Shown: piece by piece, positions 10,676 to 43,538 of the stretch
Layout of the letters: each line of letters starts with the position of its first letter
How positions within the stretch are numbered: the stretch's first letter is position 1
Sequence record: MK373782.1
DNA from: Escherichia phage vB_EcoM_KAW3E185
Reading direction: 5' to 3' (one strand)
Length of the DNA stretch: 64,000 bases
Notes under the pieces: generated by a model
What the model saw: only the letters and a program-made list of their open reading frames with translations
What the model was told of the DNA's origin: nothing
Database searches by the model: none
Program-made: the position numbers and the translations under genes

Positions 10676-10711
10676 GAGAGAATTATACTCTGCTCTCAAG
10701 AGTTTGTATAC
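10676..10711 (-). promoter_or_regulatory. sigma70-type early promoter (minus strand), -10 TATAAT
   Basis: Minus strand reads GTATAC-18nt-TATAAT; the 35-bp core is repeated at 39018..39052. Confidence 0.5.
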
Positions 10712-10950
10712 TATTTTTTAAGCATGAAAAGCAAGTAATTTGTATCGCGTGGAGTAATATCAACACCCATATCAAAGATGCCTTTATAGATTGGGTATTT
10801 GTTTTCGGTTGTATCGAAGCTGAAACTATTTCCATCACAACTAACAGTAATAGCATCTGTTAAAATGTCATACTCAATCCTAACAATTGAATCCCCAATT
10901 TTAACGTCGAGGTGTTTTTTGAATTTGATAAAATCTAATTCTTGGGCCAT
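10711..10950 (-). CDS. hypothetical protein (79 aa)
   Basis: ATG start. Confidence 0.5.
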   Translation of the reverse strand: MAQELDFIKFKKHLDVKIGDSIVRIEYDILTDAITVSCDGNSFSFDTTENKYPIYKGIFDMGVDITPRDTNYLLFMLKK

Positions 10951-10970
10951 GATATTTTCCTCATTTTAAG

Positions 10971-11010
10971 ACGATAGGAAGATAATAACATGTCTTCCTA
11001 TCGTTGTACA
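10971..11010 (-). promoter_or_regulatory. early promoter with 12-bp inverted repeat flanking the -10 (minus strand)
   Basis: Minus strand reads TGTACA-ACGATAGGAAGA-catgtTATTAT-TCTTCCTATCGT, then a Shine-Dalgarno sequence and ATG. Confidence 0.5.
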
Positions 11011-11013
11011 TTA

Positions 11014-11214
11014 TTAACCGAACTTTTTAGCGCCTTTCCAGCCTTCGTACATAACTGCACAAGTCAGTAGTACAGCGTGCTGGCATTCTTTGTATTTGTA
11101 AATCCAGAACCAGCGTAAGAAGTCTTCATCCTCAACGCCGTTGAGTTTCATATTGGCAAAGAATTCGGCACGTTCTTCACGAAGCTTTTGCGATAACATA
11201 GATTCAGGATTCAT
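11014..11214 (-). CDS. hypothetical protein (66 aa)
   Basis: ATG start. Confidence 0.5.
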   Translation of the reverse strand: MNPESMLSQKLREERAEFFANMKLNGVEDEDFLRWFWIYKYKECQHAVLLTCAVMYEGWKGAKKFG

Positions 11215-11345
11215 TTTGTGTTCCAGGCCCCATTTTCATCGATGAACTTAATCCAGTCATTTACAGACCATTTAGTTGTATCACCCTTTGGATTAACATT
11301 TAAAGTATATAATCCCTGCTTAAAAAGCATTCGTTTGATATTCAT
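11211..11345 (-). CDS. hypothetical small protein (about 44 aa; start uncertain)
   Basis: ORF 11211..11438 overlaps the upstream gene; ATG at 11345 follows GAGGAAA and the upstream stop. Confidence 0.3.
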   Translation of the reverse strand: MNIKRMLFKQGLYTLNVNPKGDTTKWSVNDWIKFIDENGAWNTK

Positions 11346-11352
11346 AATTTCC

Positions 11353-11646
11353 TCAACTGTAACGATAACATTCGTTAGCTTTACGTTTGGCTTCAGTATG
11401 AGAAGTATTATAATCATACTCTTCTTTACTGTAAACATCTTTTTTCAACTTACGAACTTCTTTGCGGAGTTGTCGATTCATTTCATTCTTGACTTCAGAA
11501 TCAACGCCTTTCATACGTTTCCATTTATCTGAGCGGAAGATGTTTTCAACCATGTCTTTGTGGCTAACACCGTCAGGAGCTTTACGCTTACCAAAATAGT
11601 CGTAATCGCGAACTTTCAAATCTTTACGACGATACGTTTTACCCAT
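11353..11646 (-). CDS. hypothetical basic protein (about 97 aa)
   Basis: ORF-track start is TTG; ATG at 11646; Lys/Arg-rich. Confidence 0.4.
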   Translation of the reverse strand: MGKTYRRKDLKVRDYDYFGKRKAPDGVSHKDMVENIFRSDKWKRMKGVDSEVKNEMNRQLRKEVRKLKKDVYSKEEYDYNTSHTEAKRKANECYRYS

Positions 11647-11653
11647 AAGTACC

Positions 11654-11902
11654 TCAGAGGTTGATTGATACAACGCGTTTGATAAAATTCACTTCACTTA
11701 CTGAAAGGTCTTTAAGACCGATTGATTCTAAACGCTGAGTAAGCGTCAACATCGGGATATAATCCCAATGAGTTTTAGTTGCTTGATAAGTACGAACTCC
11801 ATTAGCAATTTCAACGTTCAAATCGGAAATGGTAATGAATATCGGACGCTCGTCATTAACTTTAAGGGTTAGAACAACTTTCTTTGAATCTAAACTAATC
11901 AT
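11654..11902 (-). CDS. hypothetical protein (82 aa)
   Basis: ORF from the six-frame track, tiling with its neighbours. Confidence 0.45.
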   Translation of the reverse strand: MISLDSKKVVLTLKVNDERPIFITISDLNVEIANGVRTYQATKTHWDYIPMLTLTQRLESIGLKDLSVSEVNFIKRVVSINL

Positions 11903-12081
11903 GACTTAATTTCCTTCGCAATTGAACAGAAGATACCACGGTCACAAAGCATTTCACCAATTTCTGGATATTTGATTGAATGGTACCAAACATCCAGGCT
12001 TGAAACTCTGGTTATCTGTACTGCATTACCGTTGACAGAATAGTACTGGTCAACCTTAATTTCTTTATCTTCAATTGTCAT
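11899..12081 (-). CDS. hypothetical protein (60 aa)
   Basis: ORF 11899..12243 includes intergenic sequence; ATG at 12081 preceded by AGAGGAAAA; a GTTTAC-type promoter-like sequence lies upstream (about 12110..12143). Confidence 0.4.
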   Translation of the reverse strand: MTIEDKEIKVDQYYSVNGNAVQITRVSSLDVWYHSIKYPEIGEMLCDRGIFCSIAKEIKS

Positions 12082-12217
12082 TTTATTTTCCTCTATAGTA
12101 GATGGTTTAATCTTAACACATTTATTGAGGATGTAAACTGTTTTATGAAAATATTTTTTGATTTGAGAGGGGCACAAGGAGATAGTGAAGTGAAGATTCC
12201 AATGGATTATATTAGAA

Positions 12218-12249
12218 ATGAGATAAAGAAGACCAGGCGGCACCTGGTC
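12218..12249 (-). terminator. rho-independent terminator (minus strand)
   Basis: Hairpin GACCAGG-tgccg-CCTGGTC followed on the minus-strand RNA by a U-rich tract; overlaps the nrdH-like stop. Confidence 0.45.
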
Positions 12250-13190: not shown

Positions 13191-13661
13191 TTAATCATGT
13201 TTCCACACCCCATCGGTATTTGACCAAAGTCGCTGATTATCTGATCCTCGCCACAGCTTTTTAGTCGGAAGATTTTTCTCATACTTCCCATCAATAATAA
13301 CATCAACATATTTAAGCATTTCTAGTTGTTTAATATCTTCAAACTTATATCCTGTCCACAACCAAATGCTTTTATTGGGATAAAGATTTTTTACTGTTTG
13401 AGCAATGCGATGAATAACATCTCGGTTATCAGGATAGAGAGGGTCTCCTCCGGTTATAGTTAATCCTTCTATATAATCATTATTCAAACATTCAATCAAT
13501 TGTTCTAGTGTCTCTCCAGTGAATGGAATACCATTTCTAGCATTCCATGTTGATTTATTATAACACCCTTCACATTTATGCAAACAACCTGTAACGAAAA
13601 GAACGACCCTGCATCCAGGGCCATTCACAAAGCAGCACGGGTATATTCTGTCATAATTCAT
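13191..13661 (-). CDS. nrdG: anaerobic ribonucleotide reductase activating protein NrdG (156 aa)
   Basis: Radical-SAM-type cysteine cluster CLHKCEGC; ATG at 13661 gives MNYDRIYPCCFVNGPGCRVV and the T4 NrdG length; start overlaps the upstream stop (ATGA). Confidence 0.9.
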   Translation of the reverse strand: MNYDRIYPCCFVNGPGCRVVLFVTGCLHKCEGCYNKSTWNARNGIPFTGETLEQLIECLNNDYIEGLTITGGDPLYPDNRDVIHRIAQTVKNLYPNKSIWLWTGYKFEDIKQLEMLKYVDVIIDGKYEKNLPTKKLWRGSDNQRLWSNTDGVWKHD

Positions 13662-14488
13662 AATAATATCCAATTTTTCCAAGCTTCATCAGTAGAATTA
13701 CAGCGTTTTAGTATAAGATGTCTAGAAACTTTTATGGCATTTGAGCACTTTTTAATTGAATCATACTTAATACCGTCAACTGAAACGGTTTTGCTAGTTG
13801 GAGAAATTTTTCCATACATTGGATTTTTTGAACCAACTTGAAGTCCTTTTAAAGCTTTTGAAAGCTTTTGTCTAGATTCCAATGACATGGGAGAATTCTT
13901 TTTACCTTCAATAATTCGCTTGCGATGAAGTTCGCGTTCTTCTTCACTCAAAGAATTGTAATATTTTTTAACACCGTTTGATATAGATAATTTATCTTTC
14001 TCAGACCGCTCTCCAGCTAATTTACTTCTAACATCTTTTCGCTTCATAGCTATGCTTACGGCTTTATTTAAATTTGCTTGATGCTCTGGCGTACGTTTAT
14101 ATTTCTTTAAAGCACGTGAAATAGCTATTTTAGTTTCTTCTGTTCTCTTTTTACCTTTATTTGCTAAACTATTTTTGCGGCGATGTTCAAGTGTCTGTTC
14201 ATAGGCAGTTCCACCTTTTCCACCAGGTTTAATATTATATGTATTTTCTTTTAGACAATACTCTTCGGTTACGAGTTCAGCTTCTTTATCATACATTTGC
14301 TTTTCATTATCAAAAACATATAAAATTTCTTTATAAAAATTTTTTCTACCATATTTTAATAAAGCAGCACGAATCAATGTTCCTGATCCCATATAACCGT
14401 CATTTATGTTATCGGTGCTATGCGCACCGATATATTCCTTTGAATTAATTATATTTGTTATTTTATAAATTATATAATACCTATGCAT
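13658..14488 (-). CDS. free-standing GIY-YIG homing endonuclease (276 aa)
   Basis: N-terminal motif YYIIYKITNIINSKEYIGAHS (GIY...YIG); basic C-terminal repeats typical of Seg/I-TevI DNA-binding regions. Confidence 0.8.
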   Translation of the reverse strand: MHRYYIIYKITNIINSKEYIGAHSTDNINDGYMGSGTLIRAALLKYGRKNFYKEILYVFDNEKQMYDKEAELVTEEYCLKENTYNIKPGGKGGTAYEQTLEHRRKNSLANKGKKRTEETKIAISRALKKYKRTPEHQANLNKAVSIAMKRKDVRSKLAGERSEKDKLSISNGVKKYYNSLSEEERELHRKRIIEGKKNSPMSLESRQKLSKALKGLQVGSKNPMYGKISPTSKTVSVDGIKYDSIKKCSNAIKVSRHLILKRCNSTDEAWKNWILL

Positions 14489-17813: not shown

Positions 17814-17848
17814 GATAAACCCTTACCTTAAATAGATAAGGGTATTTA

Positions 17849-19902: not shown

Positions 19903-20852
19903 TATAACACCTCAATGGCATTTCGTAAACCATCCGCTTTCGCATTCAGAGCTTTTAACGATTTAGTTTGTTCTGCAATCTGGGCTTCGACTTCTTTCAG
20001 ACGAGATTTGAGATATTCGCGTTCTTCTCTTAAGTTATCAACTTTTTCTGCTTTAGGCTCTTTAATAGACTTAGGCTTATACTCGTTAGGGTTCTTCAAC
20101 TTAATTTGAATGCGAGAACTGTATAACATTGAACCATTATCTTCGGTTTCATCATACATTTCTACCACGTCCATGATTCTTAACATCATGCGAAGTTTAT
20201 AAGACAGCGAACGAATGGTTTTATTGTGCTTCTTAATTTCTTCAACTTTCATGGTGCCGAGATTACGTGAGTAATAATAAGGAACCTGAATATCAATTGA
20301 TAATGATGCGGTACCATTACCGGTTGGTTTGAACACTGCAGTAACCCAATCTTTAGCATGAACTGTATTTGTACGATCATCGCCGCCTGTGAATAATTTA
20401 CGAGAATGTTTAAAAAGCATATTCACTTGGTTATTGAATTCACAAGCAAATTTATCAGCAAATTTAGTTTCAGGAATGGTAGTTAACCAATCAGCCAAAT
20501 GAGTCTTTTTAACATCATTAACAATAGTGAATTCAACCAAATCGGTTTTAGATGTCACAGATTTAATAAAGCTCGGCTTCATAAAGTTTTTAATGTTATC
20601 GCGAGCTACAGTAGAAGATAATAAACGAGAACGTTTGAACCATTGAAGCAGTGTCCCTAATGAATGAGAATATGCATTTTGAGTATCTTTACAGATATGA
20701 TTTTCTTGGCCTATGTATGTACCAAAATCTCGAAGAATACCACTTACTACATCTCGGTGTGGAACATCAAATCCTAGTACACCAGAAGCACGTTGGGCAT
20801 GAACGTTAGCGATAAGACCTGCAAAGTATTCAATGTAATGTGAACGTGTCAT
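19902..20852 (-). CDS. hypothetical protein with C-terminal coiled coil (316 aa)
   Basis: ATG start; heptad-like C-terminal 60 aa; promoter cassette immediately upstream. Confidence 0.55.
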   Translation of the reverse strand: MTRSHYIEYFAGLIANVHAQRASGVLGFDVPHRDVVSGILRDFGTYIGQENHICKDTQNAYSHSLGTLLQWFKRSRLLSSTVARDNIKNFMKPSFIKSVTSKTDLVEFTIVNDVKKTHLADWLTTIPETKFADKFACEFNNQVNMLFKHSRKLFTGGDDRTNTVHAKDWVTAVFKPTGNGTASLSIDIQVPYYYSRNLGTMKVEEIKKHNKTIRSLSYKLRMMLRIMDVVEMYDETEDNGSMLYSSRIQIKLKNPNEYKPKSIKEPKAEKVDNLREEREYLKSRLKEVEAQIAEQTKSLKALNAKADGLRNAIEVL

Positions 20853-20880
20853 AATATTTTCCTCTCGTTAAGATAAATTC

Positions 20881-20910
20881 ATTATACTCCAACCATCCTT
20901 GGTTGTAAAC
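20881..20910 (-). promoter_or_regulatory. early promoter cassette with spacer hairpin (minus strand)
   Basis: Minus strand reads GTTTAC-aCAACCAaggaTGGTTGgag-TATAAT; the 26-bp core is identical at 21901..21926. Confidence 0.55.
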
Positions 20911-20914: not shown

Positions 20915-21874
20915 TTATGATTTTAACGCATTCATTGCGTTAAAAAGTTTAGAATACTGCAACTGGAGATTCGTTACAACACTTTGAGCATCACGAAGCT
21001 TAGCTTGTGCTTTGTCAAGTTCAACAGACAGTTGGTCCATAGTGGCCTTGATTTGATTGTAATGGTAATCTTCGGCCGGAAGAAGGTCATTAGAAACATT
21101 TAGTTTTACTGCAGACAGTTTGCACACATTTGGCAAACCTTTAAACATTGATTTACCCGAAGTAGAATAAGCACTTAGGACTTCGGCCTGTTCAATTGGG
21201 GTCCCAGTAAGCGATGCTTCAAACAATGCATTTTCCTTTTTAAGATTTTGATAGTATTCAGAGTCTTTGTGCCACCATGGCGCAGGAACCTTTTTACCAA
21301 TAGATACACGAGCCTGGATAGCGATATTGCCCTTATTCTTGATAGGGTCGATAATATTAAGCTCACGAGAATAAATTGCTTTAATCTGGTGAATATTATC
21401 ACCTAACACTTCCAACGCTTGGTGGAATACACGAGCAACGTTATCATTCTTAGGTTTATACGTAAGAGTGAACTCGTTCTCACTGATAACCATGATTTCC
21501 AACTTATCGTAAGTATATTTCAAATGTTTCATGTTAATTGCTTGAGGACGAATACGAGAAGCAATGGCCATCAGATTGTTAAGGTTATTCCGGAACTGCT
21601 TAGCGAAATATTGTCCTTCACCGCCAATACAAAAATTACGAAGTTTCTGTTTGGCCAATAAACGGCTGAACTCGCCATTTTTAATGAACTCTTTAACGGG
21701 TGTGTTAGTAACGCATTCAAATTGAGTAAACTTACGAGAATTAATCCCATAATACGAACAGATTTCCTCAATCTCTTCAGGAGTCTTTACAGGCATACGG
21801 ATAGGATTAGGTCCTGGAGTATATGCGTTCGAGGTAAATTCTTTGATAAGTTCTCTACGTGTAATAAAAGCCAT
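20915..21874 (-). CDS. hypothetical protein with C-terminal coiled coil (319 aa)
   Basis: ATG start; same promoter cassette upstream. Confidence 0.55.
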   Translation of the reverse strand: MAFITRRELIKEFTSNAYTPGPNPIRMPVKTPEEIEEICSYYGINSRKFTQFECVTNTPVKEFIKNGEFSRLLAKQKLRNFCIGGEGQYFAKQFRNNLNNLMAIASRIRPQAINMKHLKYTYDKLEIMVISENEFTLTYKPKNDNVARVFHQALEVLGDNIHQIKAIYSRELNIIDPIKNKGNIAIQARVSIGKKVPAPWWHKDSEYYQNLKKENALFEASLTGTPIEQAEVLSAYSTSGKSMFKGLPNVCKLSAVKLNVSNDLLPAEDYHYNQIKATMDQLSVELDKAQAKLRDAQSVVTNLQLQYSKLFNAMNALKS

Positions 21875-21900
21875 TTTATATTCCTCATGTTGAAAAATTT

Positions 21901-21930
21901 ATTATACTCCAACCATCCTTGGTTGTACAT
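21901..21930 (-). promoter_or_regulatory. early promoter cassette with spacer hairpin (minus strand), second copy
   Basis: TGTACA-aCCAAGGATGGTTGgag-TATAAT; duplicate of the 20881 cassette. Confidence 0.55.
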
Positions 21931-22925: not shown

Positions 22926-22987
22926 AACTATTTCCTCAGATTGAATTGGAACTCAAAACCATTATAACCCGTCCTTGGGTAAAGCGT

Positions 22988-23515
22988 TTATGCGTGAACC
23001 GTCTTTAAACGTTCTTCAAATTTCCGAAGAGTACTAATACGTTCTGCTTTCTGTTTTGTATAGTTTGCAATACGTTCTGAAGTGAGAGCGTATCGTTCGT
23101 TTACTGATTCTTTCATGAAGTCAGGGATTTCACGAGAAGCTTTAATTTCATCAAACTTATCGAGTACTGCCTGGTCTTCAGCGATTAAATTTTCGTACAT
23201 CTCGATATCTTTCTTGATAAACTCGATATCTTCCTGGGTTACTTTGGATAAACGAGATGCTTTATCCTTTTTGTACTGCTCGTTAGTTTCACGAGACCAG
23301 AATAATGTACGTTTTTTGTTAGTGTTTTTGTAGACTTCCACAATTCCAACTGAATCGATGATAACAATCCAATTCCAGCGAGATTTGAAAATCTGACCTC
23401 CGTCCACGGTAATCTCGTTACCATAAGCAACGTCATTAAAGAACTTGCTTTGTGCTTCAGATTTAAATTTACCGTCGTTATAATTTACCAGGTTGAAAAT
23501 ATCTTTAGCGTTCAT
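22988..23515 (-). CDS. hypothetical protein (175 aa)
   Basis: ATG start; GGAGG upstream. Confidence 0.5.
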   Translation of the reverse strand: MNAKDIFNLVNYNDGKFKSEAQSKFFNDVAYGNEITVDGGQIFKSRWNWIVIIDSVGIVEVYKNTNKKRTLFWSRETNEQYKKDKASRLSKVTQEDIEFIKKDIEMYENLIAEDQAVLDKFDEIKASREIPDFMKESVNERYALTSERIANYTKQKAERISTLRKFEERLKTVHA

Positions 23516-23534
23516 GTTTTACCTCCAGTAGTTG

Positions 23535-23571
23535 ATAGGTCTATAATAACATAACCATAGACCTTGTAAAC
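23535..23571 (-). promoter_or_regulatory. early promoter with inverted repeat around the -10 (minus strand)
   Basis: GTTTAC-17nt-TATTAT flanked by AGGTCTAT...ATAGACCT. Confidence 0.5.
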
Positions 23572-24468: not shown

Positions 24469-24684
24469 ATCTGAGAATACGTCAACGTCGTCGATTAAGA
24501 GAACGCTGTCTGCATCACGGTTGAGCCAAAGTTGTTCGTAAAGGCCAATACCGGAGATTTTACCATACTCGCTTCAATAAGATTCACTATGCCGTTTACC
24601 ATGTTATAGGTAAACATCGGATAATTGTATTGTACTACAACATAAGCGATAAGCAAAAGTTTCATTTTGTTCTCCGTTCGTTTT

Positions 24685-24723
24685 GATAGGACTACTATAA
24701 TATAGTCCTACCAAGATGTAAAC
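24685..24723 (-). promoter_or_regulatory. early promoter with inverted repeat GATAGGACTA/TAGTCCTA around the -10 (minus strand)
   Basis: GTTTAC-18nt-TATAGT, then AAAAC, GGAG and ATG. Confidence 0.5.
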
Positions 24724-24956: not shown

Positions 24957-25116
24957 ACATTTGCAATTCGGTGTGGGCTTCGGCCATCTTTTTCATAGCT
25001 CTGTTAATGTCGATGTCTCCATCTTCGCAACCATGAGCATTTTCCCAATCGGATACCGCATTAGCGTACTCTTCAATCAAAAACATCAACTTAGAAATCT
25101 TTTCTTTACGTGACAT
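24937..25116 (-). CDS. hypothetical protein (about 59 aa)
   Basis: ORF 24937..25185; ATG at 25116 preceded by AGAGGAG. Confidence 0.35.
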   Translation of the reverse strand: MSRKEKISKLMFLIEEYANAVSDWENAHGCEDGDIDINRAMKKMAEAHTELQMYVNEIM

Positions 25117-25143
25117 AACGTTCTCCTCTAGTAAGTAAGGTTT

Positions 25144-25172
25144 ACTATAACACAACCTGAGGAGAAGTAAAC
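25144..25172 (-). promoter_or_regulatory. early promoter GTTTAC-17-TATAGT (minus strand)
   Basis: Spacer sequence closely resembles the regB promoter at 28780..28825. Confidence 0.5.
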
Positions 25173-25211: not shown

Positions 25212-25217
25212 AGTAAA

Positions 25218-28309: not shown

Positions 28310-28768
28310 CTAGATTTTAATCACTGCTTTAGAAGCTTTTCCTGGTAGTCGTTTACTGTTAATAATAGCCATTCTGCATTGAAGAGTCTTCATTTTGAAT
28401 GCTGGATTTTCGCGACAAACTGTAAGTCCTAACCAAAGATTTCCGTCAGTTATTTCTAAACGGCCTGGGCGATATTCGACACCTTCGACAAAATCTTCAT
28501 CAACATCTGGACGGGCCGGCATTGATAAAAATTCTGCAACTTCTTTAACATGATTTTTTACTTTATGAAATAATTCAAAAACGTAATTCTCATCTATTTC
28601 TCTCTGGATGGCACGATCTAAGAGATGTTGAGAATACTTGATATGAAAGCCTGGTAGTCCAAGAGACTTTGCAGCATCTTTTATACCGGCATTTATTTTG
28701 CGGAACTCCGTTTCAAAGATTCGACGGAGTTTATTACGGCGGATAAAAACGTCTGAATTGATAGTCAT
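28310..28768 (-). CDS. regB: endoribonuclease RegB (152 aa)
   Basis: MTINSDVFIRRNKLRR...QCRMAIINSKRLPGKASKAVIKI, near-identical to recalled T4 RegB. Confidence 0.9.
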   Translation of the reverse strand: MTINSDVFIRRNKLRRIFETEFRKINAGIKDAAKSLGLPGFHIKYSQHLLDRAIQREIDENYVFELFHKVKNHVKEVAEFLSMPARPDVDEDFVEGVEYRPGRLEITDGNLWLGLTVCRENPAFKMKTLQCRMAIINSKRLPGKASKAVIKI

Positions 28769-28779
28769 TTTGATTTCTC

Positions 28780-28825
28780 CTCTAGTTGACAGGTCTATAG
28801 TAACACAACTAGAGGAGAAGTAAAC
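28780..28825 (-). promoter_or_regulatory. early promoter of regB with 9-bp inverted repeat around the -10 (minus strand)
   Basis: GTTTAC-17nt-TACTAT flanked by CTCTAGTTG...CAACTAGAG. Confidence 0.5.
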
Positions 28826-31190: not shown

Positions 31191-31604
31191 TTAGTAAATT
31201 GATTTGCCATAATATTTGTACCAAGACGGCCGTTGAGCAATTTTTTCATCTAAGCGTGCTTGACTTATCGCAATGGACGCTTCGGACGGGTCATAATTAT
31301 TACGAAATTCGGCAGGGATGTCGGAAATATCCTGGACTGTCGTGTCCTTGATTTTGAAACCACGTTTCAAGCATTCAGCGATTAGCTCGATTTGACGTAA
31401 ACGTAAAAATTCGAGTTTGTCGTAAAAGAATGTTACGTGACCTGTGCCTAAGATAAATGTTGGAGAGATTTTAAAATCCTTTACACGTTTACCGTTTTGA
31501 ACATGTTTACGGACTGCACCAAATACGCGTGGTAATTCACGATACTCAGCCATAAGATGTTGGTCGGCCAGTTCAGAAACAAGTGTTAAATTGATACGAG
31601 TCAT
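31191..31604 (-). CDS. denV: endonuclease V, pyrimidine-dimer DNA glycosylase DenV (137 aa)
   Basis: ATG at 31604 gives [34 protein letters not shown]..., near-identical to recalled T4 endonuclease V. Confidence 0.9.
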
Positions 31605-31624
31605 AATTTCCTCCAAGTAGTTGA

Positions 31625-31661
31625 TGAATGTATAGTATCAAAGTCCTTGGAGGAAGTAAAC
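31625..31661 (-). promoter_or_regulatory. early promoter of denV, GTTTAC-18-TACTAT (minus strand)
   Basis: Spacer contains the recurring CCAAGGA core; followed by GGAGG and the denV ATG. Confidence 0.5.
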
Positions 31662-32429: not shown

Positions 32430-32463
32430 AATACCTCCCACGTTTATAGGAGGTATTTATTAC

Positions 32464-34311: not shown

Positions 34312-34617
34312 TTATTTTCCTCGACATTCTTTAATGAAATTTTCTAGATTGGTAGATTCAATAGCTTTTTTACGAGCTTCTGCGTGTTCTTCTTCAGACA
34401 ATTTACATTTATAATTGACCCAGACGTTATGGTCGAAACTAGTCGTGGCATATAATAACAATGCTCCAACGAATAGCAAAAACGGCGATAAGAATACAAA
34501 ACCAGGAACACCATCCATACTGTAAGCCTTTTGTAATACTGCAACAGAAAGAGCTGCGTAAAAAAGTGATACAAATATTGTTAAAAGACCAATTCGGTTG
34601 GTTTCGCCTAATTTCAT
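34312..34617 (-). CDS. hypothetical membrane protein (101 aa)
   Basis: Hydrophobic N-terminal half; C-terminus NLENFIKECRGK. Confidence 0.5.
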   Translation of the reverse strand: MKLGETNRIGLLTIFVSLFYAALSVAVLQKAYSMDGVPGFVFLSPFLLFVGALLLYATTSFDHNVWVNYKCKLSEEEHAEARKKAIESTNLENFIKECRGK

Positions 34618-34636
34618 AATATTCTCCTCATGTTTT

Positions 34637-34676
34637 AATAGGACTACTATAACATAGTCCTATCAGTTTGTACACT
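34637..34676 (-). promoter_or_regulatory. early promoter with inverted repeat TAGGACTA/TAGTCCTA around the -10 (minus strand)
   Basis: TGTACA-spacer-TATAGT, then AAAAC, GAGGAGAA and ATG. Confidence 0.5.
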
Positions 34677-34876
34677 TATTTTGACATTTCTTCGATGTCA
34701 CGACGATACCCATCACGAACTTCACGAAGAGCTTCAAGGCCACACATAGGCTCGATACCAGTAATGTGAACTTGATTAATCTGATACTCTACATCTTCTA
34801 ACTGAGCGAAAACATAACGACGTTCTGCTGCACAACCAGGTTTAGCTTTACCGAAACGTTTATTCAAAGTAGTCAT
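34676..34876 (-). CDS. hypothetical protein (about 66 aa)
   Basis: ORF-track start is GTG; ATG at 34876 preceded by GGAG. Confidence 0.45.
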   Translation of the reverse strand: MTTLNKRFGKAKPGCAAERRYVFAQLEDVEYQINQVHITGIEPMCGLEALREVRDGYRRDIEEMSK

Positions 34877-34904
34877 TTTTATATCTCCATTCACTCATTT
34901 GTTT

Positions 34905-34944
34905 TGATAGGTCTATAGTATCAACAACTACAGACCTTGTAAAC
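34905..34944 (-). promoter_or_regulatory. early promoter cassette with inverted repeat AGGTCT/AGACCT (minus strand)
   Basis: GTTTAC at 34944..34939 with TATAGA/TATAGT-like -10 inside the repeat. Confidence 0.45.
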
Positions 34945-35941: not shown

Positions 35942-36193
35942 TTAAATTTCACGACATGCGATATTATATTCATCCCAGAGGTCATCATGTGAAGCCTCTA
36001 CCAATGGAACGATTGTACCGTTTATGTCTTCATTATAAGGGCAAATTGTACAGTGCGCATCTTCGAATCGGATGCCTTTGTGTTCAGATTTTTTATAACG
36101 CATATCGAATATCTTTGCAAACTTTTCACGAGTAATGGTTTTAGCAACCACTTTAGTTCCGATACTTTCGTAATAAATCATTGTGGACTCCAT
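35942..36193 (-). CDS. hypothetical protein (83 aa)
   Basis: ATG start. Confidence 0.5.
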   Translation of the reverse strand: MESTMIYYESIGTKVVAKTITREKFAKIFDMRYKKSEHKGIRFEDAHCTICPYNEDINGTIVPLVEASHDDLWDEYNIACREI

Positions 36194-36200
36194 TTGTTTT

Positions 36201-36239
36201 GATAGGACTACTATAACATAGCCCTATCTTGTTGTAAAC
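36201..36239 (-). promoter_or_regulatory. early promoter with inverted repeat GATAGGACTA/TAGCCCTATC (minus strand)
   Basis: GTTTAC-spacer-TATAGT cassette of the same family as at 24685 and 43145. Confidence 0.5.
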
Positions 36240-38388: not shown

Positions 38389-38982
38389 TTATTTCAAAGA
38401 GTTAATATATTCTTGTACATCAGCAGAAGTGGTTTCGACACCGGCTGGAGTGCCATTGAACGTTTCAACACGAGTCAGAGTGTCTTCGATATCAACCTTA
38501 GTCAGTGCAGCGATTTCAATTACATCATCAGCCGTAGAGATACCAAGGGCATTGGCTGCTCGAGTTTCACGAATGTATTCGAGTTTGATTGCCAGGTTCT
38601 GACGAGCATCGTCAAGTTCAACCACCTTACGAGCAATTTCAATTCGCATAGCGGCATACCCGTCAGCTTTTGTATTAAGTTGTTCGGCAGTTCGACGATA
38701 CAGAAGACCAAGCTTAGCATGCATGGTAACATCTTGTCCTTCGGCCAAGAGCTTACGAATTTCACGTTCCTTAGAAGCGGCTTGCTTATTCTTTTCAATA
38801 ACAAGTTCGCGAATACGTTTTTCTTCATTAATAGATTTAACAGAAGCCGTTTTTAGTTCTTTGATTTGGGTAATCAACTTATCTGCAGCTGCGTTATACT
38901 GTTCTTCGACAGTCAGATTTTTAGCCATAGCAGTACCCAGTTTAGTGCGGATGAATTCAACAAGTTTCTTCAGTGTGTTCAT
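38389..38982 (-). CDS. coiled-coil protein, PspA/IM30-like (about 197 aa)
   Basis: ATG at 38982; long amphipathic coiled-coil sequence throughout; family assignment from pattern only. Confidence 0.45.
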
Positions 38983-39017
38983 ATTATTACCTTTCAATTG
39001 GTGGTCTATTATCCAAT

Positions 39018-39052
39018 GAGAGCATTATACTCTGCTCTCAAGAGTTTGTAAA
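39018..39052 (-). promoter_or_regulatory. early promoter TTTACA-17-TATAAT (minus strand)
   Basis: Core TATACTCTGCTCTCAAGAGTTTGTA is identical to the copy at 10676..10711. Confidence 0.5.
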
Positions 39053-39280
39053 TTATTTTTTAATCAAATTGACATAAAACTCGGCGTCTTCTGGGTGCAT
39101 GCCTTCACAGTATTCTTCAACCATGAACTTCTTAACAGCTTCATAAGGACCACTCAGATTAAGCTCAGTTGTCCAGAACTTGGAATCTTGGACCGAATCG
39201 ATACGAACGTCAGGGTGACGGTTGCGAATAACTTCTTCAGTATATTCATAATCAACGACATCAATACTAACTTTAGCCAT
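39053..39280 (-). CDS. hypothetical acidic protein (75 aa)
   Basis: ATG start. Confidence 0.5.
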   Translation of the reverse strand: MAKVSIDVVDYEYTEEVIRNRHPDVRIDSVQDSKFWTTELNLSGPYEAVKKFMVEEYCEGMHPEDAEFYVNLIKK

Positions 39281-39308
39281 TTTGTTTTCCTCTTGATTTG
39301 ATGTGATT

Positions 39309-39338
39309 ACTATAACATAAACTTACTTAGATGTAAAT
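39309..39338 (-). promoter_or_regulatory. early-promoter-like sequence TTTACA-17-TATAGT (minus strand)
   Basis: Sequence pattern only. Confidence 0.35.
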
Positions 39339-39490
39339 TATTTCAACGTCACCTTTAGCGGCTTTATAACCTTCAGCCCAAGATACAACAGAGTTTTTAT
39401 CTGAGGATTCAAATTCAGGCATTGGACTTTCACCAATATTCACACAGTATGTTTCTTCATTTTCATCGAACCAAATAATTAAAGTAGTCA
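39326..39490 (-). CDS. hypothetical small protein (54 aa)
   Basis: ATG at 39490 preceded by GAGGAG; below the ORF-track threshold. Confidence 0.3.
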
Positions 39491-39510
39491 TTTTGTTTAC
39501 TCCTCTGTAG

Positions 39511-39550
39511 TTGATAAGTCTATAGTATCACCATCCTTGGTGCTTGTACA
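39511..39550 (-). promoter_or_regulatory. early promoter cassette with spacer hairpin CACCAaggaTGGTG (minus strand)
   Basis: TGTACA at the -35 position; same CCAAGGATGG core as the 20881 cassette. Confidence 0.45.
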
Positions 39551-39559
39551 TCATTATTT

Positions 39560-39865
39560 TTAATTTTTCCAACTTAACAACTTGTAGTGGCCTTCATTCA
39601 TACGTGGTTTATCCCAAGAAATACTAATATATGATTCACTGTCAATAGAAGTCGCCGGGTTTTTCTCTACCGTAAGACCTTCACTTTCCAGCCATTCAAT
39701 AGTATTTGCACATAAATCAGAAGAACACCTAATCGGAAACCGGCAAGATTTTTCACCTTTAGCTGCAGCGTTATACATCTTTTCTAAAATACGCTTTTGC
39801 ACGTTTTTAAAAATAGTTTCAGCAGATTCTTCGGATTTTTTATTCAGTTCAGTATAAAGACTCAT
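39560..39865 (-). CDS. hypothetical protein (101 aa)
   Basis: ATG start. Confidence 0.5.
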   Translation of the reverse strand: MSLYTELNKKSEESAETIFKNVQKRILEKMYNAAAKGEKSCRFPIRCSSDLCANTIEWLESEGLTVEKNPATSIDSESYISISWDKPRMNEGHYKLLSWKN

Positions 39866-39884
39866 AACATTTTCCTCTGCGGTT

Positions 39885-39922
39885 GATAAGTCTATAGTAT
39901 CATGTCCTTAGAAGAAGTAAAC
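39885..39922 (-). promoter_or_regulatory. early promoter GTTTAC-17-TACTAT (minus strand)
   Basis: Followed by GAGGAAAA and ATG. Confidence 0.5.
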
Positions 39923-39954
39923 ATCTTTATGAAATATTTTTATGCCCTAGATAC

Positions 39955-39982
39955 CAAAAAGCCCCAACCGTAAGGAAGGGGC
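39955..39982 (-). terminator. rho-independent terminator (minus strand)
   Basis: GCCCCttccttacggttGGGGC hairpin followed by UUUUU; near-identical to the copy at 40498. Confidence 0.55.
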
Positions 39983-39988
39983 ATTCTA

Positions 39989-40565: not shown

Positions 40566-40722
40566 GCAAGTGTTTGTACGAAACGCCGGGATTCGAACCC
40601 GGTTATTAAGCAGTTGACGCTACTCAATATTTTTAAAAGGCCATATCTCGACCATATCCGAACGTTCCGTCAAAAACGCTACTCGGCTTACGGCAAAGAT
40701 ATTTCCTCGAATCGATAATTCG
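40566..40722 (-). ncRNA. tRNA-like structured RNA (about 155 nt; possibly a species-1/2-type stable RNA)
   Basis: Minus-strand RNA has 5' GAAACGGCG pairing with 3' CGGCGUUUCG (one mismatch) and a canonical T-arm CCGGGUUCGAAUCCCGG; boundaries approximate. Confidence 0.4.
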
Positions 40723-40832
40723 GTGCGCCGTTTCTGTTGTGATAGTAAAGAATCAGAACACAGTAAAACTGTGGGAGAAACTATACTCCAGGGAACATCA
40801 GTCCGACGACTTACCGGTAGCGACCCGGTTTC

Positions 40833-41195: not shown

Positions 41196-41272
<77 letters not shown>

Positions 41273-41275
41273 GAT

Positions 41276-41352
41276 TGGTGACCCAGACCAGATTCGAACT
41301 GGTAACCTTTCCCTTATGAGGGGACTGCTGCTAACCGTTGAGCTACAGGGCC
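41276..41352 (-). tRNA. tRNA-Ile (anticodon CAU, Ile2-type)
   Basis: Minus-strand GGCCCTGTAGCTCAACGGTTAGCAGCAGTCCCCTCATAAGGG...TTCGAATC...CACCA; anticodon loop CUCAUAA; called Ile rather than Met from the T4 tRNA set. Confidence 0.75.
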
Positions 41353-41951: not shown

Positions 41952-42242
41952 TCACCGTACCATATTAATGTAATTATATTCAATGCAACGTAATTTCAAA
42001 GTGTTCTTGAAAATATCGTATTCAAGAGGGCCTGATTCAGTTTCAATAAAGAAATCAAAATTAACTGTGTTAAATTTATTGTCTTCACAGAGTAATTTAA
42101 CCTGTGAAGATGAACGGTCGATATAAACCTTTTCAACCTCAAAGTTAGTCAGAATACCGTAGTCATCGACTAGTGCTTTAGCTGCACGTTGGTCGCTTTC
42201 ATATCCATTCTCAACGGATTTTACCTTAGCATAAAGAATCAT
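41952..42242 (-). CDS. hypothetical protein (96 aa)
   Basis: ATG start. Confidence 0.5.
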   Translation of the reverse strand: MILYAKVKSVENGYESDQRAAKALVDDYGILTNFEVEKVYIDRSSSQVKLLCEDNKFNTVNFDFFIETESGPLEYDIFKNTLKLRCIEYNYINMVR

Positions 42243-42601
42243 GAATGTTCCACCACTTCAAAGGTATGAGCATCAACAATATGATACCAGTCAAAATTTT
42301 CTTCTGAGTTTTTATAAATTTCGCGAAGAGCTTCAACAGTTTTTCCTGTAGCAACAAGATCATCAATACCACCAAGAGGATAACAGTCATAACCAGCAAA
42401 CAGAAGGAAATTAATAGTTTCTGTAGGTTCTGGATGCAGAACACCGTTATCGTCTACCACTTCAAAGAAAGTGTAAGAAGGAGTACAAGTTTTAATCCAA
42501 GCCCAGGCTTGAGCTGCTGAATCAAATGGTCCGCGTATCAAACGACAATCAGGGTCTTTAGAAGGATTTGCTTCAAAATCTGCATATACATGATATTTCA
42601 T
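42239..42601 (-). CDS. hypothetical protein (about 120 aa)
   Basis: ORF-track start is TTG; ATG at 42601 preceded by AAAGGTGA. Confidence 0.5.
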   Translation of the reverse strand: MKYHVYADFEANPSKDPDCRLIRGPFDSAAQAWAWIKTCTPSYTFFEVVDDNGVLHPEPTETINFLLFAGYDCYPLGGIDDLVATGKTVEALREIYKNSEENFDWYHIVDAHTFEVVEHS

Positions 42602-42602
42602 T

Positions 42603-42788
42603 TTACTCACCTTTTGCAATTTTATCCATAACGATAGCGATTAAGCCGATTAGAAATGCTACTACCAATGAGATAGAATTTTCTGTTGTTGTCAGTAGTC
42701 CACAAATGAATCCTACAAACATCGAAAAACTAAAAGCCATTGAAGCAATTACTACAGCAACATTACGAATCAGTTCAGCGCGTTTCAT
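42603..42788 (-). CDS. hypothetical small membrane protein (about 61 aa)
   Basis: ATG at 42788 preceded by GGAG; single hydrophobic helix. Confidence 0.45.
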   Translation of the reverse strand: MKRAELIRNVAVVIASMAFSFSMFVGFICGLLTTTENSISLVVAFLIGLIAIVMDKIAKGE

Positions 42789-42814
42789 TTTATTTCTCCA
42801 TTTACTCATTTGTT

Positions 42815-42855
42815 TTGATAGGACTACTATATCATATCCCTATAGGCTTGTATAC
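42815..42855 (-). promoter_or_regulatory. early promoter cassette, GATAGGACTA family (minus strand)
   Basis: GTATAC-spacer-TATAG with TAGGACTA... repeat, then AAAAC. Confidence 0.45.
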
Positions 42856-42857
42856 CT

Positions 42858-43121
42858 TTATTTCAAATATATTGCGTATTTTTTATAGCCACCAGGCTCG
42901 TGTCGAAGACCTTTATCATTTGCAAAACGTTGAATGTTATTGAACTGATTTTCATCAAGTTCAGACGTGTCAAATATGAAAAAGTTTCGTTTGTTACCAA
43001 GCGTGATATGCGGAGTTAAGTCAATGTTATACAAATTAAGAATATCAACAATAACCTGATTGACCGCTTTGTTAATTTTCACACCAGACGATTCTGAGAT
43101 GAATTCGTTGAAAGTTTTCAT
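42858..43121 (-). CDS. internal-protein-like gene with capsid-targeting leader (about 87 aa)
   Basis: Starts MKTFNEFISES. Confidence 0.55.
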   Translation of the reverse strand: MKTFNEFISESSGVKINKAVNQVIVDILNLYNIDLTPHITLGNKRNFFIFDTSELDENQFNNIQRFANDKGLRHEPGGYKKYAIYLK

Positions 43122-43144
43122 TTTAGGTTCCATTTGGTTGTTTT

Positions 43145-43183
43145 GATAGGACTACTATAACATAGTCCTATCAGCATGTAAAC
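43145..43183 (-). promoter_or_regulatory. early promoter with inverted repeat GATAGGACTA/TAGTCCTATC around the -10 (minus strand)
   Basis: GTTTAC-18nt-TATAGT, then AAAAC. Confidence 0.5.
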
Positions 43184-43186
43184 TAC

Positions 43187-43474
43187 TTACAGAAGAGTTT
43201 TTGCAATAATTTTAAGCTGAGCTACAGAAATATGCTTAGCTTTAAACAGTGCAGTCTCTTCAGCCGGAGAGATAACAATAGTAGCGCCATCTTTCTTAGC
43301 AGACCATCCATCCCCTAAGTAAACAGTACCTTTTACTTCTTCACCATCAACCAGACTAATCATTGGTTTACCCTCACGTCCTTTATTTGTTTTAATAACT
43401 TCAGAAGTAAGGGATGCTTCGGTCAGAGTAGAAACGTTAGCAACAGGTGATATAAATTCTTTATAGGTTTTCAT
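43187..43474 (-). CDS. internal-protein-like gene with capsid-targeting leader (95 aa)
   Basis: Starts MKTYKEFIS...TE; ATG start; own promoter upstream. Confidence 0.55.
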   Translation of the reverse strand: MKTYKEFISPVANVSTLTEASLTSEVIKTNKGREGKPMISLVDGEEVKGTVYLGDGWSAKKDGATIVISPAEETALFKAKHISVAQLKIIAKTLL

Positions 43475-43501
43475 TTTATTTCCTTGAGGTTGTTTATTTG
43501 A

Positions 43502-43538
43502 TAGGATGATAGTAACACACCATCATCCTTATGTAAAC
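43502..43538 (-). promoter_or_regulatory. early promoter with 9-bp inverted repeat AGGATGATG/CATCATCCT around the -10 (minus strand)
   Basis: GTTTAC-18nt-TACTAT. Confidence 0.5.

Follow-up and report, generated by a model that had tools for sequence, protein, structure and literature searches.

Early promoter cassettes with variable inverted repeats in an RB69-like phage genome: probable hairpins of read-through RNA

The closest described relatives of the elements considered here are the PeSL cassettes, known in phi1/RB49 (Arbiol et al. 2010, PMC2839356) and in PST/T4 and nt-1/KVP40 (Comeau et al. [quoted passage not shown] Mosigvirus is absent from these PeSL analyses, which contain no mention of RB69 (PMC2839356, PMC4122927). 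For RB69 itself, Nolan et al. 2006 (PMC1524935) predicted 58 early promoter (Pe) sites, in windows that put +1 at the A of CCTATC (CCTA, then TC). Early-promoter/stem-loop flanks are also conserved at the internal-protein (IP) loci of T-even phages, according to Repoila et al. 1994 as cited in PMC2839356 and PMC4122927. A related arrangement is found in the T4 genes e, soc, 49 and I-TevI, where a promoter lies inside a hairpin that sequesters the Shine-Dalgarno (SD) sequence; long transcripts initiated upstream fold over the SD, while those started internally lack the 5' strand and are translated (PMC3014915).

Early promoter cassettes of the window

The window, which is the whole 64,000-nt stretch of Escherichia phage vB_EcoM_KAW3E185 (MK373782.1) that was analysed, is a genome segment of a T4-type phage of the Mosigvirus (RB69-like) group. 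A known e-type hairpin is present at 32430-32463. There are 20 clear T4-type early promoter cassettes (the one at 12138 included), all of them minus-strand and located within 10642-43538, and two to three weak extra ones (18525, 19930, 11436). They share an A-rich UP region, GTTTAC, 17-18 nt, TGn (present in 15 of 20 when the cassettes are aligned to a consensus), TAtaaT, CCTATCAA, the SD and ATG, and occupy gaps of 55-80 nt in which the stop codon of the upstream gene is usually just 2-16 nt ahead of the -35. An earlier, sequence-only reading had proposed about twenty such cassettes, and its architecture was read back at 14 of 14 coordinates, on the minus strand and within about 10 nt; the AAAAC that it listed after the -10 is present, not as a separate element but as part of a conserved start-site block, CCTATCAAAAC.

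With one mismatch or fewer allowed, KTTTAC-N18-TAYWRT has 36 matches, a number attained by none of 100 shuffles (11.1 +/- 3.3), and its ten exact matches are without exception on the minus strand, at 11.4-43.5 kb. A looser regex gave 19 intergenic and 7 coding matches, or 5.1 against 0.17 per kb (about 30-fold; Fisher p=1e-15), so the equal frequency within coding sequence that had been named in advance as refuting the proposal is not what is seen. As judged from this enrichment, the intergenic restriction, the consensus and the orthology to the early promoters that Nolan 2006 (PMC1524935) predicted for RB69, the cassettes are strong sigma-70 early promoters of the T4 type. Several are near-identical, as had been noticed: 20910 and 21930, and likewise 10711 and 39053, share exactly 27 nt (cassettes are named by their higher coordinate), and 43183 and 34675 share exactly 29 nt.

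The cassettes are listed below with the layout of their repeats. Class a (GATAGGACTA/TAGTCCTATC type and relatives) has its 3' arm at about -6 to +4 and its hairpin 15-25 nt upstream of the SD, class b has a short spacer hairpin with an AGGA loop, and in the five members of class c (regB, denV, mobD.2a, 55.6 and ORF146c) the 3' arm is the SD itself; z is the folding z-score against dinucleotide shuffles, and SD values are predicted unpaired probabilities in read-through RNA and in the cassette's own transcript.

10642..10711, minus strand: before gp55.2 homologue; weak repeat GAGAG/CTCTC around -10; orthologue of RB69 Pe:42515
10948..11011, minus strand: before RB69ORF075c homologue; class a, 12-bp ACGATAGGAAGA/TCTTCCTATCGT bracketing -10; MFE -18.6, z -4.4
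12079..12138, minus strand: before gp55.6 homologue; class c, weak, TCCTC after -35 pairing with SD GAGGA; SD 0.0 and 0.6
20850..20910, minus strand: before nrdC.3; class b, spacer hairpin CAACCA-AGGA-TGGTTG
21872..21930, minus strand: before nrdC.5; class b, spacer hairpin identical to that of 20910
23513..23571, minus strand: before nrdC.8; class a, AGGTCTAT/ATAGACCT, 11 pairs with G.U allowed
24663..24723, minus strand: before 56-aa fusion ORF; class a, (TTG)GTAGGACTA/TAGTCCTA(TCAA), one G.U; z -4.2
25114..25172, minus strand: before mobD.2a; class c, TTCTCCTC pairing with SD GAGGAGAA; SD 0.0 and 0.56; canonical terminator ahead, within 25173-25217
28766..28825, minus strand: before regB; class c, 14-bp helix TTCTCCTCTAGTTG/CAACTAGAGGAGAA, MFE -21.6, predicted to enclose the -10 and inferred start site and to sequester the SD
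31602..31661, minus strand: before denV; class c, 10-bp spacer-SD pairing TTCCTCCAAG/CTTGGAGGAA; z -4.9
34615..34675, minus strand: before ORF133c homologue; class a, (T)GATAGGACTA/TAGTCCTAT(TA); downstream border of mobile module
34874..34944, minus strand: before 66-aa ORF (34676-34876); class a, AGGTCTGTAGT/ACTATAGACCT, one G.U; upstream border of mobile module
36179..36239, minus strand: before ORF135c homologue; class a, GATAGGGCTA/TAGTCCTATC, one G.U
38980..39053, minus strand: before e.6; class a, TGAGAGCA/TGCTCTCA bracketing -10
39278..39338, minus strand: before frd.3; without inverted repeat; z +0.4
39489..39551, minus strand: before ORF145c homologue; class b, CACCA-AGGA-TGGTG
39863..39922, minus strand: before ORF146c homologue; class c, TTCTTCT/AGAGGAA, one G.U; SD 0.03 and 0.63; terminator ahead, within 39923-39988; site of breakpoints against RB69 and JS09
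42786..42855, minus strand: before tRNA.4; degenerate repeat ATAGG/CCTAT; site of breakpoints against RB69 and Shf125875
43119..43183, minus strand: before internal-protein gene; class a, TGATAGGACTA/TAGTCCTATCA; z -4.6
43472..43538, minus strand: before IpI-like gene; class a, AGGATGAT/ATCATCCT, 12 pairs with G.U allowed; z -3.8

Pairing of spacer and leader

A significant inverted repeat is found in about 12 of the 20 cassettes (mean z -2.5 over all 20, with 11 below -2.5) and is absent or weak in about 40% of them; the earlier description of cassettes with embedded repeats does not hold for 39338, which has none, and holds weakly for 42855 and 10711. Spacer hairpins and repeats bracketing the -10 had both been recognised and both exist, while the subclass that pairs with the ribosome-binding site had been missed: the CCAAGGA spacer hairpin is seen at 20881, 21901 and 39511 but at 31625 is replaced by the 10-bp spacer-SD pairing of denV, and bracketing of the -10 holds for the class a sites but at 28780 is really a 14-bp spacer-SD pairing.

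In about half of the cassettes the -35/-10 spacer is complementary to sequence immediately past the -10, and therefore the start site, as placed from the position of the -10 and from published predictions, would fall between the two arms. A transcript initiated at the cassette itself would not include the 5' arm and would remain open, whereas RNA reading through from upstream would carry both arms and fold, so only the read-through RNA should form the hairpin in vivo. For the five class c cassettes the predicted probability that the SD is unpaired is 0.00-0.03 when the RNA is a read-through product and 0.4-0.6 when it is the cassette's own transcript. Read-through copies of these genes would thus be untranslatable, and expression of the gene would therefore be limited to the time when its own early promoter is active. 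The class a hairpin would most likely influence RNA fate as an intercistronic attenuator or a 3'-end-protecting stem-loop, which is a guess and the weakest part of the account, since class a hairpins have no U-tract, none was called as a terminator and their predicted SD accessibility is unchanged.

The complementarity is not confined to the window. Among 34 literature-defined RB69 promoters, pairing of each spacer with its own downstream sequence has a duplex energy of -11.3 kcal/mol against -7.7 for cross pairings (permutation p<=1e-4), the best partner of each spacer being its own downstream, and a helix score >=7 is reached in 133 of 301 distinct T4-like promoters, where spacer shuffles lead to an expectation of 17. 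Stem sequences vary among promoters while complementarity is maintained: the three bases ahead of CCTATC covary with the spacer (AGC/GGGCT, AGT/GGACT, TAC/GGGTA, AAC/GGGTT, CTT/GGAAG), and the helix of regB orthologues is retained in four lineages, the T4/T2 group included, and 6 of 8 positions show compensatory changes. Where 3' arms were located in the leader, they overlap the SD in 17 stems and lie elsewhere in three. Internal stem mismatches, read on the sense strand, are G.T in 15 cases, A.C in one and other in five, events that are partly related by phylogeny and come from about 10 independent stems. For the 20 window cassettes, folding energy is not significantly different between the sense and the antisense strand (Wilcoxon p=0.2), so the strand argument rests on this wider mismatch count. 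Stems that vary yet remain complementary, taken with the G.T excess, favour, at the level of sequence, an RNA hairpin of the sense strand over an operator. Single-stranded DNA hairpins also tolerate G.T mismatches, and a hairpin in the non-template DNA strand is therefore compatible with the same data.

Gene exchange and alternative readings

We think it reasonably probable that these early promoters lie in hairpins formed only by read-through RNA and double as homology patches for recombination. Identical stretches of 19-29 nt are common to the cassettes, which would for that reason allow ORF modules to be gained, lost or exchanged by the PeSL mechanism. The repeats might instead be mainly recombination devices, as in the strong form of the PeSL idea, with hairpin or cruciform DNA, or a protein recognising it, driving exchange, minicircles and shuffling, and any gene regulation by the hairpin incidental. 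Several observations speak for this: two adjacent cassettes border an indel at 34675..34938, where the overlap is 7 bp, a cassette-ORF-cassette module of 346 bp matches one at a different locus of Tequatrovirus Aplg8 (T4 group) with 95% identity, alignments with other phages end at cassette edges, and PeSL minicircles have been shown experimentally in phi1 and RB49 (PMC2839356). The indel, the Aplg8 module and the replacements at the IP locus bear out the earlier suggestion that cassettes coincide with gene gain and loss, but only for 8 of 34 breakpoints; these fall in the 4.3% of sequence that cassettes occupy, and the remaining 26 are away from cassettes, at homing-endonuclease insertions, microhomology deletions and plain gene junctions. 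With gene junctions as the reference, about 20% of which carry a cassette, the count of about 8 in 22 junction-associated breakpoints is a modest enrichment. The mapped crossover of the indel is in the -35 hexamer and shared flank, outside the repeat, promoter homology (19-29 nt) is enough to account for it, stem differences among cassettes reduce homology, and the G.T bias and SD coupling would be meaningless for duplex DNA, so that we regard this reading as unlikely. Cruciform extrusion in particular is disfavoured because G.T on one strand means A.C on the other.

That the repeats are operators had also been suggested; a dimeric phage or host protein would then bind the palindromes over the -10 and shut off early promoters. 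Outer half-sites GATAGG...CCTATC centred on the -10 are common to many class a repeats, while T4 early-promoter shut-off is not fully understood (PMC2988021; PMC3014915). The 5' arm nevertheless has no constant sequence or register (AGGGCTAT, AGGTCTAT, GGATGAT, TGAGAGCA, TTCTCCTCTAGTTG), the differing stems stay complementary as the helix register shifts, their mismatches are nearly all sense-strand G.T, and class c helices terminate at the ribosome-binding site. Moreover, CCTATCAA is conserved in promoters without a 5' partner (39338; RB69 Pe:72354 and Pe:55018) and is therefore a promoter element rather than a half-site; we consider operators very improbable. The least probable reading is that the repeats are functionless by-products of conserved promoter blocks and of duplicated ancestral palindromic cassettes. 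Several cassettes are clearly paralogous (20-29-nt identities), the -10 region (TATAGT/ACTATA) is partly self-complementary, and conserved TGn and -10 bases can yield G.T pairs at the inner flank, but the own-versus-cross permutation result, the eight-fold excess over spacer shuffles and the occurrence of at least eight unrelated stem sequences all argue against it, and the compensatory substitutions in regB promoters of four lineages, being covariation, already largely refute it.

Comparison with PeSL cassettes and T4 hairpins

The resemblance to PeSL cassettes proposed from the sequence holds against the published architecture (Arbiol 2010, PMC2839356): a strong early promoter, AT-rich upstream and bearing a stem-loop at the -35/-10, is followed by an SD and ATG, is repeated ahead of small ORFs in hyperplastic regions, and is located at indel and replacement junctions; the PST/T4 PeSL promoter consensus, TTTACW-N17-TAYWAT, fits as well. 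The present stems are AT-rich and variable, whereas PeSL stems are polyG/polyC, and the inferred start site here lies between the arms, which in one subclass end on the SD. In the PeSL papers (PMC2839356, PMC4122927) the stem-loop is read as a terminator, with translation and covariation unmentioned, and the PST figure legend places the stem-loops just upstream of the promoter, unlike the layout here. Of the 58 RB69 Pe sites, about 27 fall within the homologous region at 42.5-77.2 kb; they are orthologous to the present cassettes and share their sequence logo, including the C at -3 to -1. Inverted repeats, hairpins and stem-loops go unmentioned in Nolan et al. 2006 (PMC1524935). As described for T-even IP loci in the papers citing Repoila et al., cassettes flank the IP genes at 42858-43474, and relatives differ by replacements of these genes whose junctions are at or close to cassettes, while the present cassettes span 33 kb, beyond IP loci.

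Class c follows the logic of T4 e, soc, 49 and I-TevI, with the difference that the internal promoters there are late (TATAAATA) and delay expression; here the promoter is early, and expression would therefore be restricted to the immediate-early period. An SD hairpin of this early-promoter kind, for regB, denV or other early genes, is not described in the T4 reviews PMC2988021 and PMC3014915. The proposed block on translation of read-through RNA is the newer point, and the cassettes are otherwise PeSL-type elements.

Early promoters of the minus-strand block

The closest records to the 20-44 kb part of the window, among more than 1000 T4-type phage records matched by megablast, are those of Mosigvirus vB_Eco_F31, Shf125875, JS09 and phiC120, at 95-97% identity. 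By the annotation of Shf125875, JS09 and RB69, the minus strand from about 2.3 to 47 kb is an early/middle block with gp46/47, gp55, nrdH/G/D, gp49, nrdC.x, tk, vs, regB, denV and e, together with small ORFs, two tRNAs, internal proteins and gp57 to gp4, and is followed on the plus strand by late baseplate genes. The layout that the sequence-only reading had described on the minus strand, of -35 hexamer, spacer, -10 hexamer, Shine-Dalgarno (SD) sequence and ATG, was seen at all 14 of the positions it quoted. The pattern KTTTAC-N18-TAYWRT with at most one mismatch has 36 matches, where shuffles give 11.1 +/- 3.3, and its ten exact matches are all on the minus strand from 11.4 to 43.5 kb. Equal frequency of the motif inside coding sequence, which the same reading had named as counting against it, was not found, a looser promoter expression matching at 19 intergenic and 7 coding sites, or 5.1 per kb against 0.17 per kb (p=1e-15). 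The intergenic set together with 12138 makes up the 20 clear cassettes discussed here, each a minus-strand T4-type early promoter (Pe) in the short gap before an SD and ATG, named by its higher coordinate. A generic sigma-70 consensus scan was uninformative (77 sites against 65 +/- 8 expected), only the T4-type pattern being specific.

The consensus of the 20 cassettes, aaaaAA.agTTTACAa...TaTGt-TAtaaT-AgtCcTATCAAa, has the characteristics of a T4-type Pe, namely a GTTTAC -35 hexamer (at -36 to -31), a 17-18-nt gap, TGn (in 15 of 20) and a TAnnnT -10, and the 16 nt before the -35 form an A-rich, UP-like region with A at 0.41 and AT at 0.74, compared with strand averages of 0.33 and 0.63. The near-identical copies reported from the sequence were confirmed as pairs with 27-29 nt of exact identity. 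Early promoters were already predicted at the orthologous RB69 sites by Nolan et al. 2006 (PMC1524935), about 27 of whose 58 sites fall in the region homologous to the window, in a paper in which repeats or hairpins go unmentioned, and the T4 regB promoter is a typical early promoter according to a review (PMC3014915). By orthology to these predicted RB69 sites and to the T4-group regB promoter, the cassettes are putative immediate-early promoters for unmodified host RNA polymerase.

All 20 lie within 10.6-43.6 kb and many of the genes downstream of them are 'ORFxxxc' hypotheticals of RB69, while none was found in the nrdD/nrdG, tk-vs or gp57-gp4 blocks or in the late genes of the window. They share with the promoter-early stem-loop (PeSL) cassettes of T4-type phages (Arbiol 2010, PMC2839356; Comeau 2014, PMC4122927) a repeated motif placed in hyperplastic regions before small ORFs or ORFans, and an intergenic gap in which an early promoter, with a stem-loop inside or beside it, is followed by SD and ATG.

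Inverted repeats and the strand that pairs

Folding of the cassettes from -35 to ATG gave a mean z of -2.5 relative to dinucleotide shuffles, with 11 of the 20 below -2.5. A helix is significant in about 12, a short spacer hairpin is present in 3 more, and in 5 the repeat is weak or absent. The cassettes were classed by the partner of the spacer:

Class a, minus strand, spacer paired with sequence just past the -10, so that the arms bracket the -10: 11011, 23571, 24723, 34675, 34944, 36239, 39053, 43183, 43538
Class b, minus strand, hairpin within the spacer: 20910, 21930, 39551
Class c, minus strand, spacer paired with the SD: 12138, 25172, 28825 (regB), 31661 (denV), 39922
Weak or no repeat, minus strand: 10711, 39338, 42855

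What had been taken for a CCAAGGA hairpin at 31625 is really a class c pairing, TTCCTCCAAG/CTTGGAGGAA. The minor class b consists of 5-7-bp spacer hairpins with an (A/T)GGA loop and varying stems (CAACCA/TGGTTG, CACCA/TGGTG, ACATCCA/TGGATGT, TACCACA/TGTGGTA). Its loop, (A/T)GGA(U), is constant at 20881-20910, 21901-21930 and 39521-39551, and also at RB69 Pe:8387, 8947, 51019, 52042 and 72567, and is similar to an SD as well as to the GGAU form of the RegB target. Rfam found two tRNAs in the window and nothing else.

An independent set of promoters was taken from the RB69 coordinates of Nolan et al. (34 sites scoring >=12 within 1-84 kb), and each spacer was paired with the 44 nt downstream of its own promoter and, for comparison, with the corresponding 44 nt of every other promoter. 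Own pairings were stronger than cross pairings (-11.3 vs -7.7 kcal/mol) and had longer maximal Watson-Crick runs (6.3 vs 4.9), with permutation p<=1e-4 in both cases. Covariation is visible in the 88 distinct promoters found by scanning IMG/VR with GTTTAC-N18-TAnnnT-NNN-CCTATCAA, where the three free bases before CCTATC track the spacer (AGC/GGGCT, AGT/GGACT, TAC/GGGTA, AAC/GGGTT, CTT/GGAAG). Over all loci, a helix score of at least 7 is reached by 133 of 301 distinct promoter-plus-leader sequences, against 17 expected on spacer shuffling. Class a accounts for 71 stems in the wider survey of T4-like promoters, whose 3' arm starts directly at the -10 or shortly past it and reaches about +4 to +6, and class c for 17 stems whose 3' arm overlaps the SD; three others have the 3' arm elsewhere in the leader and one lies wholly inside the spacer.

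The repeats had been suggested to be operator sites, or to extrude as cruciforms, and both suggestions are now disfavoured. A palindromic operator for a dimeric repressor should present a constant half-site at fixed spacing and none was seen, the 5' arm (the spacer side of the helix) varying in both sequence and register. The mismatches also speak against it: internal mismatches with Watson-Crick pairs on both sides comprise 15 G.T, 1 A.C and 5 others, from about ten separate stems and not all independent events, whereas the composition of the sense strand leads to an expectation of roughly 1:1 for G.T and A.C. Since each sense-strand G.T corresponds to an A.C on the opposite strand, neither a cruciform nor a protein site predicts such a bias. 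Within the window alone, sense and antisense folding energies of the 20 cassettes are alike (p=0.2), so that the strand question is decided by the mismatch types in the larger set. Pair types at the helix ends were discarded as evidence, because conserved promoter bases confound them: G.T predominates at the inner flank, from the TGn/-10 bases, and A.C at the outer flank, from the TCAAAA block.

In the regB promoters of four lineages (Mosigvirus, the T4/T2 group and two more distant groups with 64-66% RegB identity) the spacer after the -35 pairs with the SD in every one, and compensatory changes are found at 6 of the 8 positions inward of GGAG, for example C-G/G-C, A-T/T-A and G-C/G.U/U-A/A-U. 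On a MAFFT alignment of these promoters RNAalifold found the 7-bp core alone, since indels move the helix out of register, and a helix-anchored count was used instead. Together with the G.T bias and the placing of leader 3' arms on the SD (17, against 3 elsewhere), the regB pairing across four lineages points to a sense-strand, single-stranded structure, most simply RNA, the alternative being a hairpin in the DNA of the non-template strand. There is thus evidence that the stem has been selected as a predicted RNA helix enclosing the inferred start site.

Read-through transcripts and the downstream cistron

The 51-nt windows of Nolan et al. (PMC1524935) end at the predicted +1, the A of CCTA-TC, which sits 7 nt past the -10 and fits their remark on C at -3 to -1. 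With the start placed there, the 5' arm is upstream of it (every class c stem has it between -35 and -10) and is missing from the cassette's own transcript, which therefore cannot fold into the helix. The stop codon of the upstream gene is 2-16 nt before the -35 in 16 of the 20 cassettes, so that read-through RNA, arriving from the upstream gene, must be common for 16-17 of them; the exceptions to this layout are 12138, 25172 and 39922, and the gaps before the last two hold one canonical terminator each. These terminators, at 25173-25217 and 39923-39988, are near-identical (GCCCCTTCC..GGTTGGGGCTTTTTGG.ATCTA), and each is directly upstream of a class c early promoter, making a repeated terminator-plus-promoter composite. 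Translational coupling, in which a terminating ribosome opens the helix, is thought unlikely because the helix begins at least 10 nt beyond the stop codon.

Partition-function folding of the class c cassettes 12138, 25172, 28825, 31661 and 39922 gave an SD unpaired probability of 0.00-0.03 in read-through RNA and 0.40-0.63 in RNA from +1, so the SD of all five is predicted to be paired in upstream-initiated RNA, through a helix that in regB is kept by the compensatory changes. Class c would thereby limit translation to the short time in which the early promoter is active, with the SD buried in read-through copies, which fits regB. RNA structure shields GGAG from RegB cleavage (PMC3014915), and the read-through copies should therefore also resist RegB.

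Some other gaps in the window have comparable hairpins. Upstream of the lysozyme gene e (31941-32429), the hairpin TACCTCC-tataaacgtg-GGAGGTA at 32430-32463 buries the SD and has the late-promoter-like TATAAAC in its loop; the same arrangement is known from T4 gene e, and the hairpin acts here as an internal positive control. Ahead of gene 49 (endonuclease VII, 17340-17813), the gap 17814-17848 contains ACCCTTA-tctatttaagg-TAAGGGT, a hairpin covering the SD region that recalls the published gene 49 translational hairpin, and relatives have 185-192 bp more there. Repeats surround the -10 of three middle-type promoters too (MotA-box GCTTTA, about 12 nt, TATAAT), at 4966-5019 (GATGTGGT/ACCACATC, before gene 45.2), 9750-9821 (ATAGGTCT/AGACCTAT, before gene 55) and 22926-22987 (ACCC-aaggac-GGGT, before nrdC.6), so the start-site-inside-hairpin layout is not confined to early promoters.

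Class a cassettes fold at about -12 to -18 kcal/mol with no contact to the SD. In a terminator scan none of their stems was terminator-like, no U-tract or T-run following the stem, and partition-function folding gave no consistent difference in SD accessibility between read-through and own transcript. One phi1 stem-loop cut downstream lacZ expression as much as rrnB T1 (PMC2839356), and because of this result we favour, tentatively and at rather less than even confidence, a role for the stem as an intercistronic attenuator or in protecting 3' ends, such as those left by RegB or RNase E cuts in the leader. The class a helix would then partition polycistronic early RNA by attenuation or 3'-end protection. 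It might cooperate with a sigma-70-dependent pause of read-through polymerase at the consensus -10 embedded there, which could explain attenuation by a stem that lacks a U-tract.

Module exchange and relation to known systems

Breakpoints were taken from chained blastn of the window against six relatives (Shf125875, JS09, RB69 and three IMG/VR Mosigvirus contigs). The proposal that gene gain and loss break at cassettes holds for clear single cases and more weakly as a rule: a cassette is found no more than 10 bp away from 8 of the 34 breakpoint clusters, and cassettes +/-10 bp make up 4.3% of the span. Taking gene junctions as the null leaves only a modest excess, since a cassette is present at about 20% of them and about 22 of the breakpoints are themselves associated with junctions. 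The clearest case is a 262-bp segment, 34675..34938, comprising a 66-aa ORF and one cassette, which is absent from RB69 and Shf125875, with the crossover in the -35 hexamer and a 7-bp overlap. The cassette-ORF-cassette unit around this ORF is 95% identical over 346 bp to Tequatrovirus Aplg8, from the UP region of the first cassette to the ATG after the second, and the Aplg8 copy sits between nrdC.11 and nrdC.10. Internal-protein genes at 42.8-43.5 kb are replaced between cassettes, and junctions relative to RB69 and JS09 fall inside cassette 39922. The match of T4 record OL964745 to the T2/RB59-type regB cassette begins at query position 29, just past the -35 hexamer, and as its flank differs upstream of that point this would be a further mosaic junction inside a cassette.

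Events away from cassettes comprise two homing-endonuclease ORFs, one 3-kb deletion and several plain gene-junction indels. Two insertions in the nrdG/nrdD region (844 and 1045 bp), without counterpart in RB69, JS09 or Shf125875, encode homing-endonuclease-like proteins at 13658-14488 and 15787-16557 (NUMOD3/I-TevI DNA-binding; SegE GIY-YIG/NUMOD1). After the second come 240 nt of non-coding sequence (16558-16797), GC-richer and perhaps intron-like, without an Rfam match at the gathering threshold. About 3.0 kb of RB69, JS09 and Shf125875 (nrdC.10, ORF102c, nrdC.11, ORF104c, mobD.1, tk.1) is missing at 24557-24566, where a 10-bp overlap of alignment blocks suggests a microhomology deletion, leaving a 56-aa fusion ORF (24495-24665) behind cassette 24723. 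Long non-coding stretches at 30739-30914 (176 nt) and 40628-40832 (205 nt) are GC-richer and structured-looking, with no Rfam match; the former is a hotspot of differences from all relatives compared, and the latter adjoins the tRNA-Arg and tRNA-Met genes (41196-41352). T4 encodes the small RNAs C and D at the corresponding place beside its tRNA genes.

An RNA switch governed by the choice of promoter is indicated by covariation, tolerance of G.U and pairing with the ribosome-binding site; the fate of a cistron would then depend on which promoter made the RNA. Taken as a whole, we judge it only slightly short of an even call that in T4-like phages (Mosigvirus, Tequatrovirus and further lineages) about half of early promoters lie inside an RNA helix formed only in upstream-initiated transcripts, making translation of the regB/denV type strictly immediate-early while class a partitions early RNA. 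If true, this would change the view of what the stem-loop in PeSL-type cassettes is for, and would give a testable explanation for the limiting of RegB-like nucleases to the first minutes of infection, although they are encoded within long read-through transcripts. It also has a bearing on why early protein synthesis declines, which is so far incompletely explained. The 346-bp unit, at a different locus in the other genus, documents module exchange between two phage genera and bears on mosaicism in therapeutic T4-like phages. The 60-nt gaps described here can be annotated as promoter plus predicted read-through hairpin.

The cassettes are PeSL by architecture and position, and probably by behaviour, as their likeness had led the sequence-only reading to propose, and are built on the T-even early-promoter consensus. 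The PeSL papers (PMC2839356, PMC4122927) did not analyse the genus Mosigvirus and mention neither translation nor covariation, and they read the stem-loop as a terminator and recombination site, whereas here it is read as an RNA switch. A further trait of PeSL cassettes is the minicircle produced when cassettes recombine with one another, shown experimentally in phi1 and RB49 (PMC2839356). What is new is the comparative evidence for a selected RNA helix around the predicted start site, and for a conserved subclass predicted to bury the SD of read-through copies. A promoter in an SD hairpin in which the promoter is early is not described in the T4 reviews (PMC2988021, PMC3014915) or in the PeSL papers. 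In T4 e, soc, 49 and I-TevI a late promoter lies within the 5' strand of an SD-sequestering helix (PMC3014915), and class c cassettes share this promoter-in-hairpin logic, which would here be applied to early genes; the internal promoter there is late (gp55, TATAAATA), whereas that of class c is of the early sigma-70 type, which makes class c a variant of the e/soc/49/I-TevI mechanism outside the described set.
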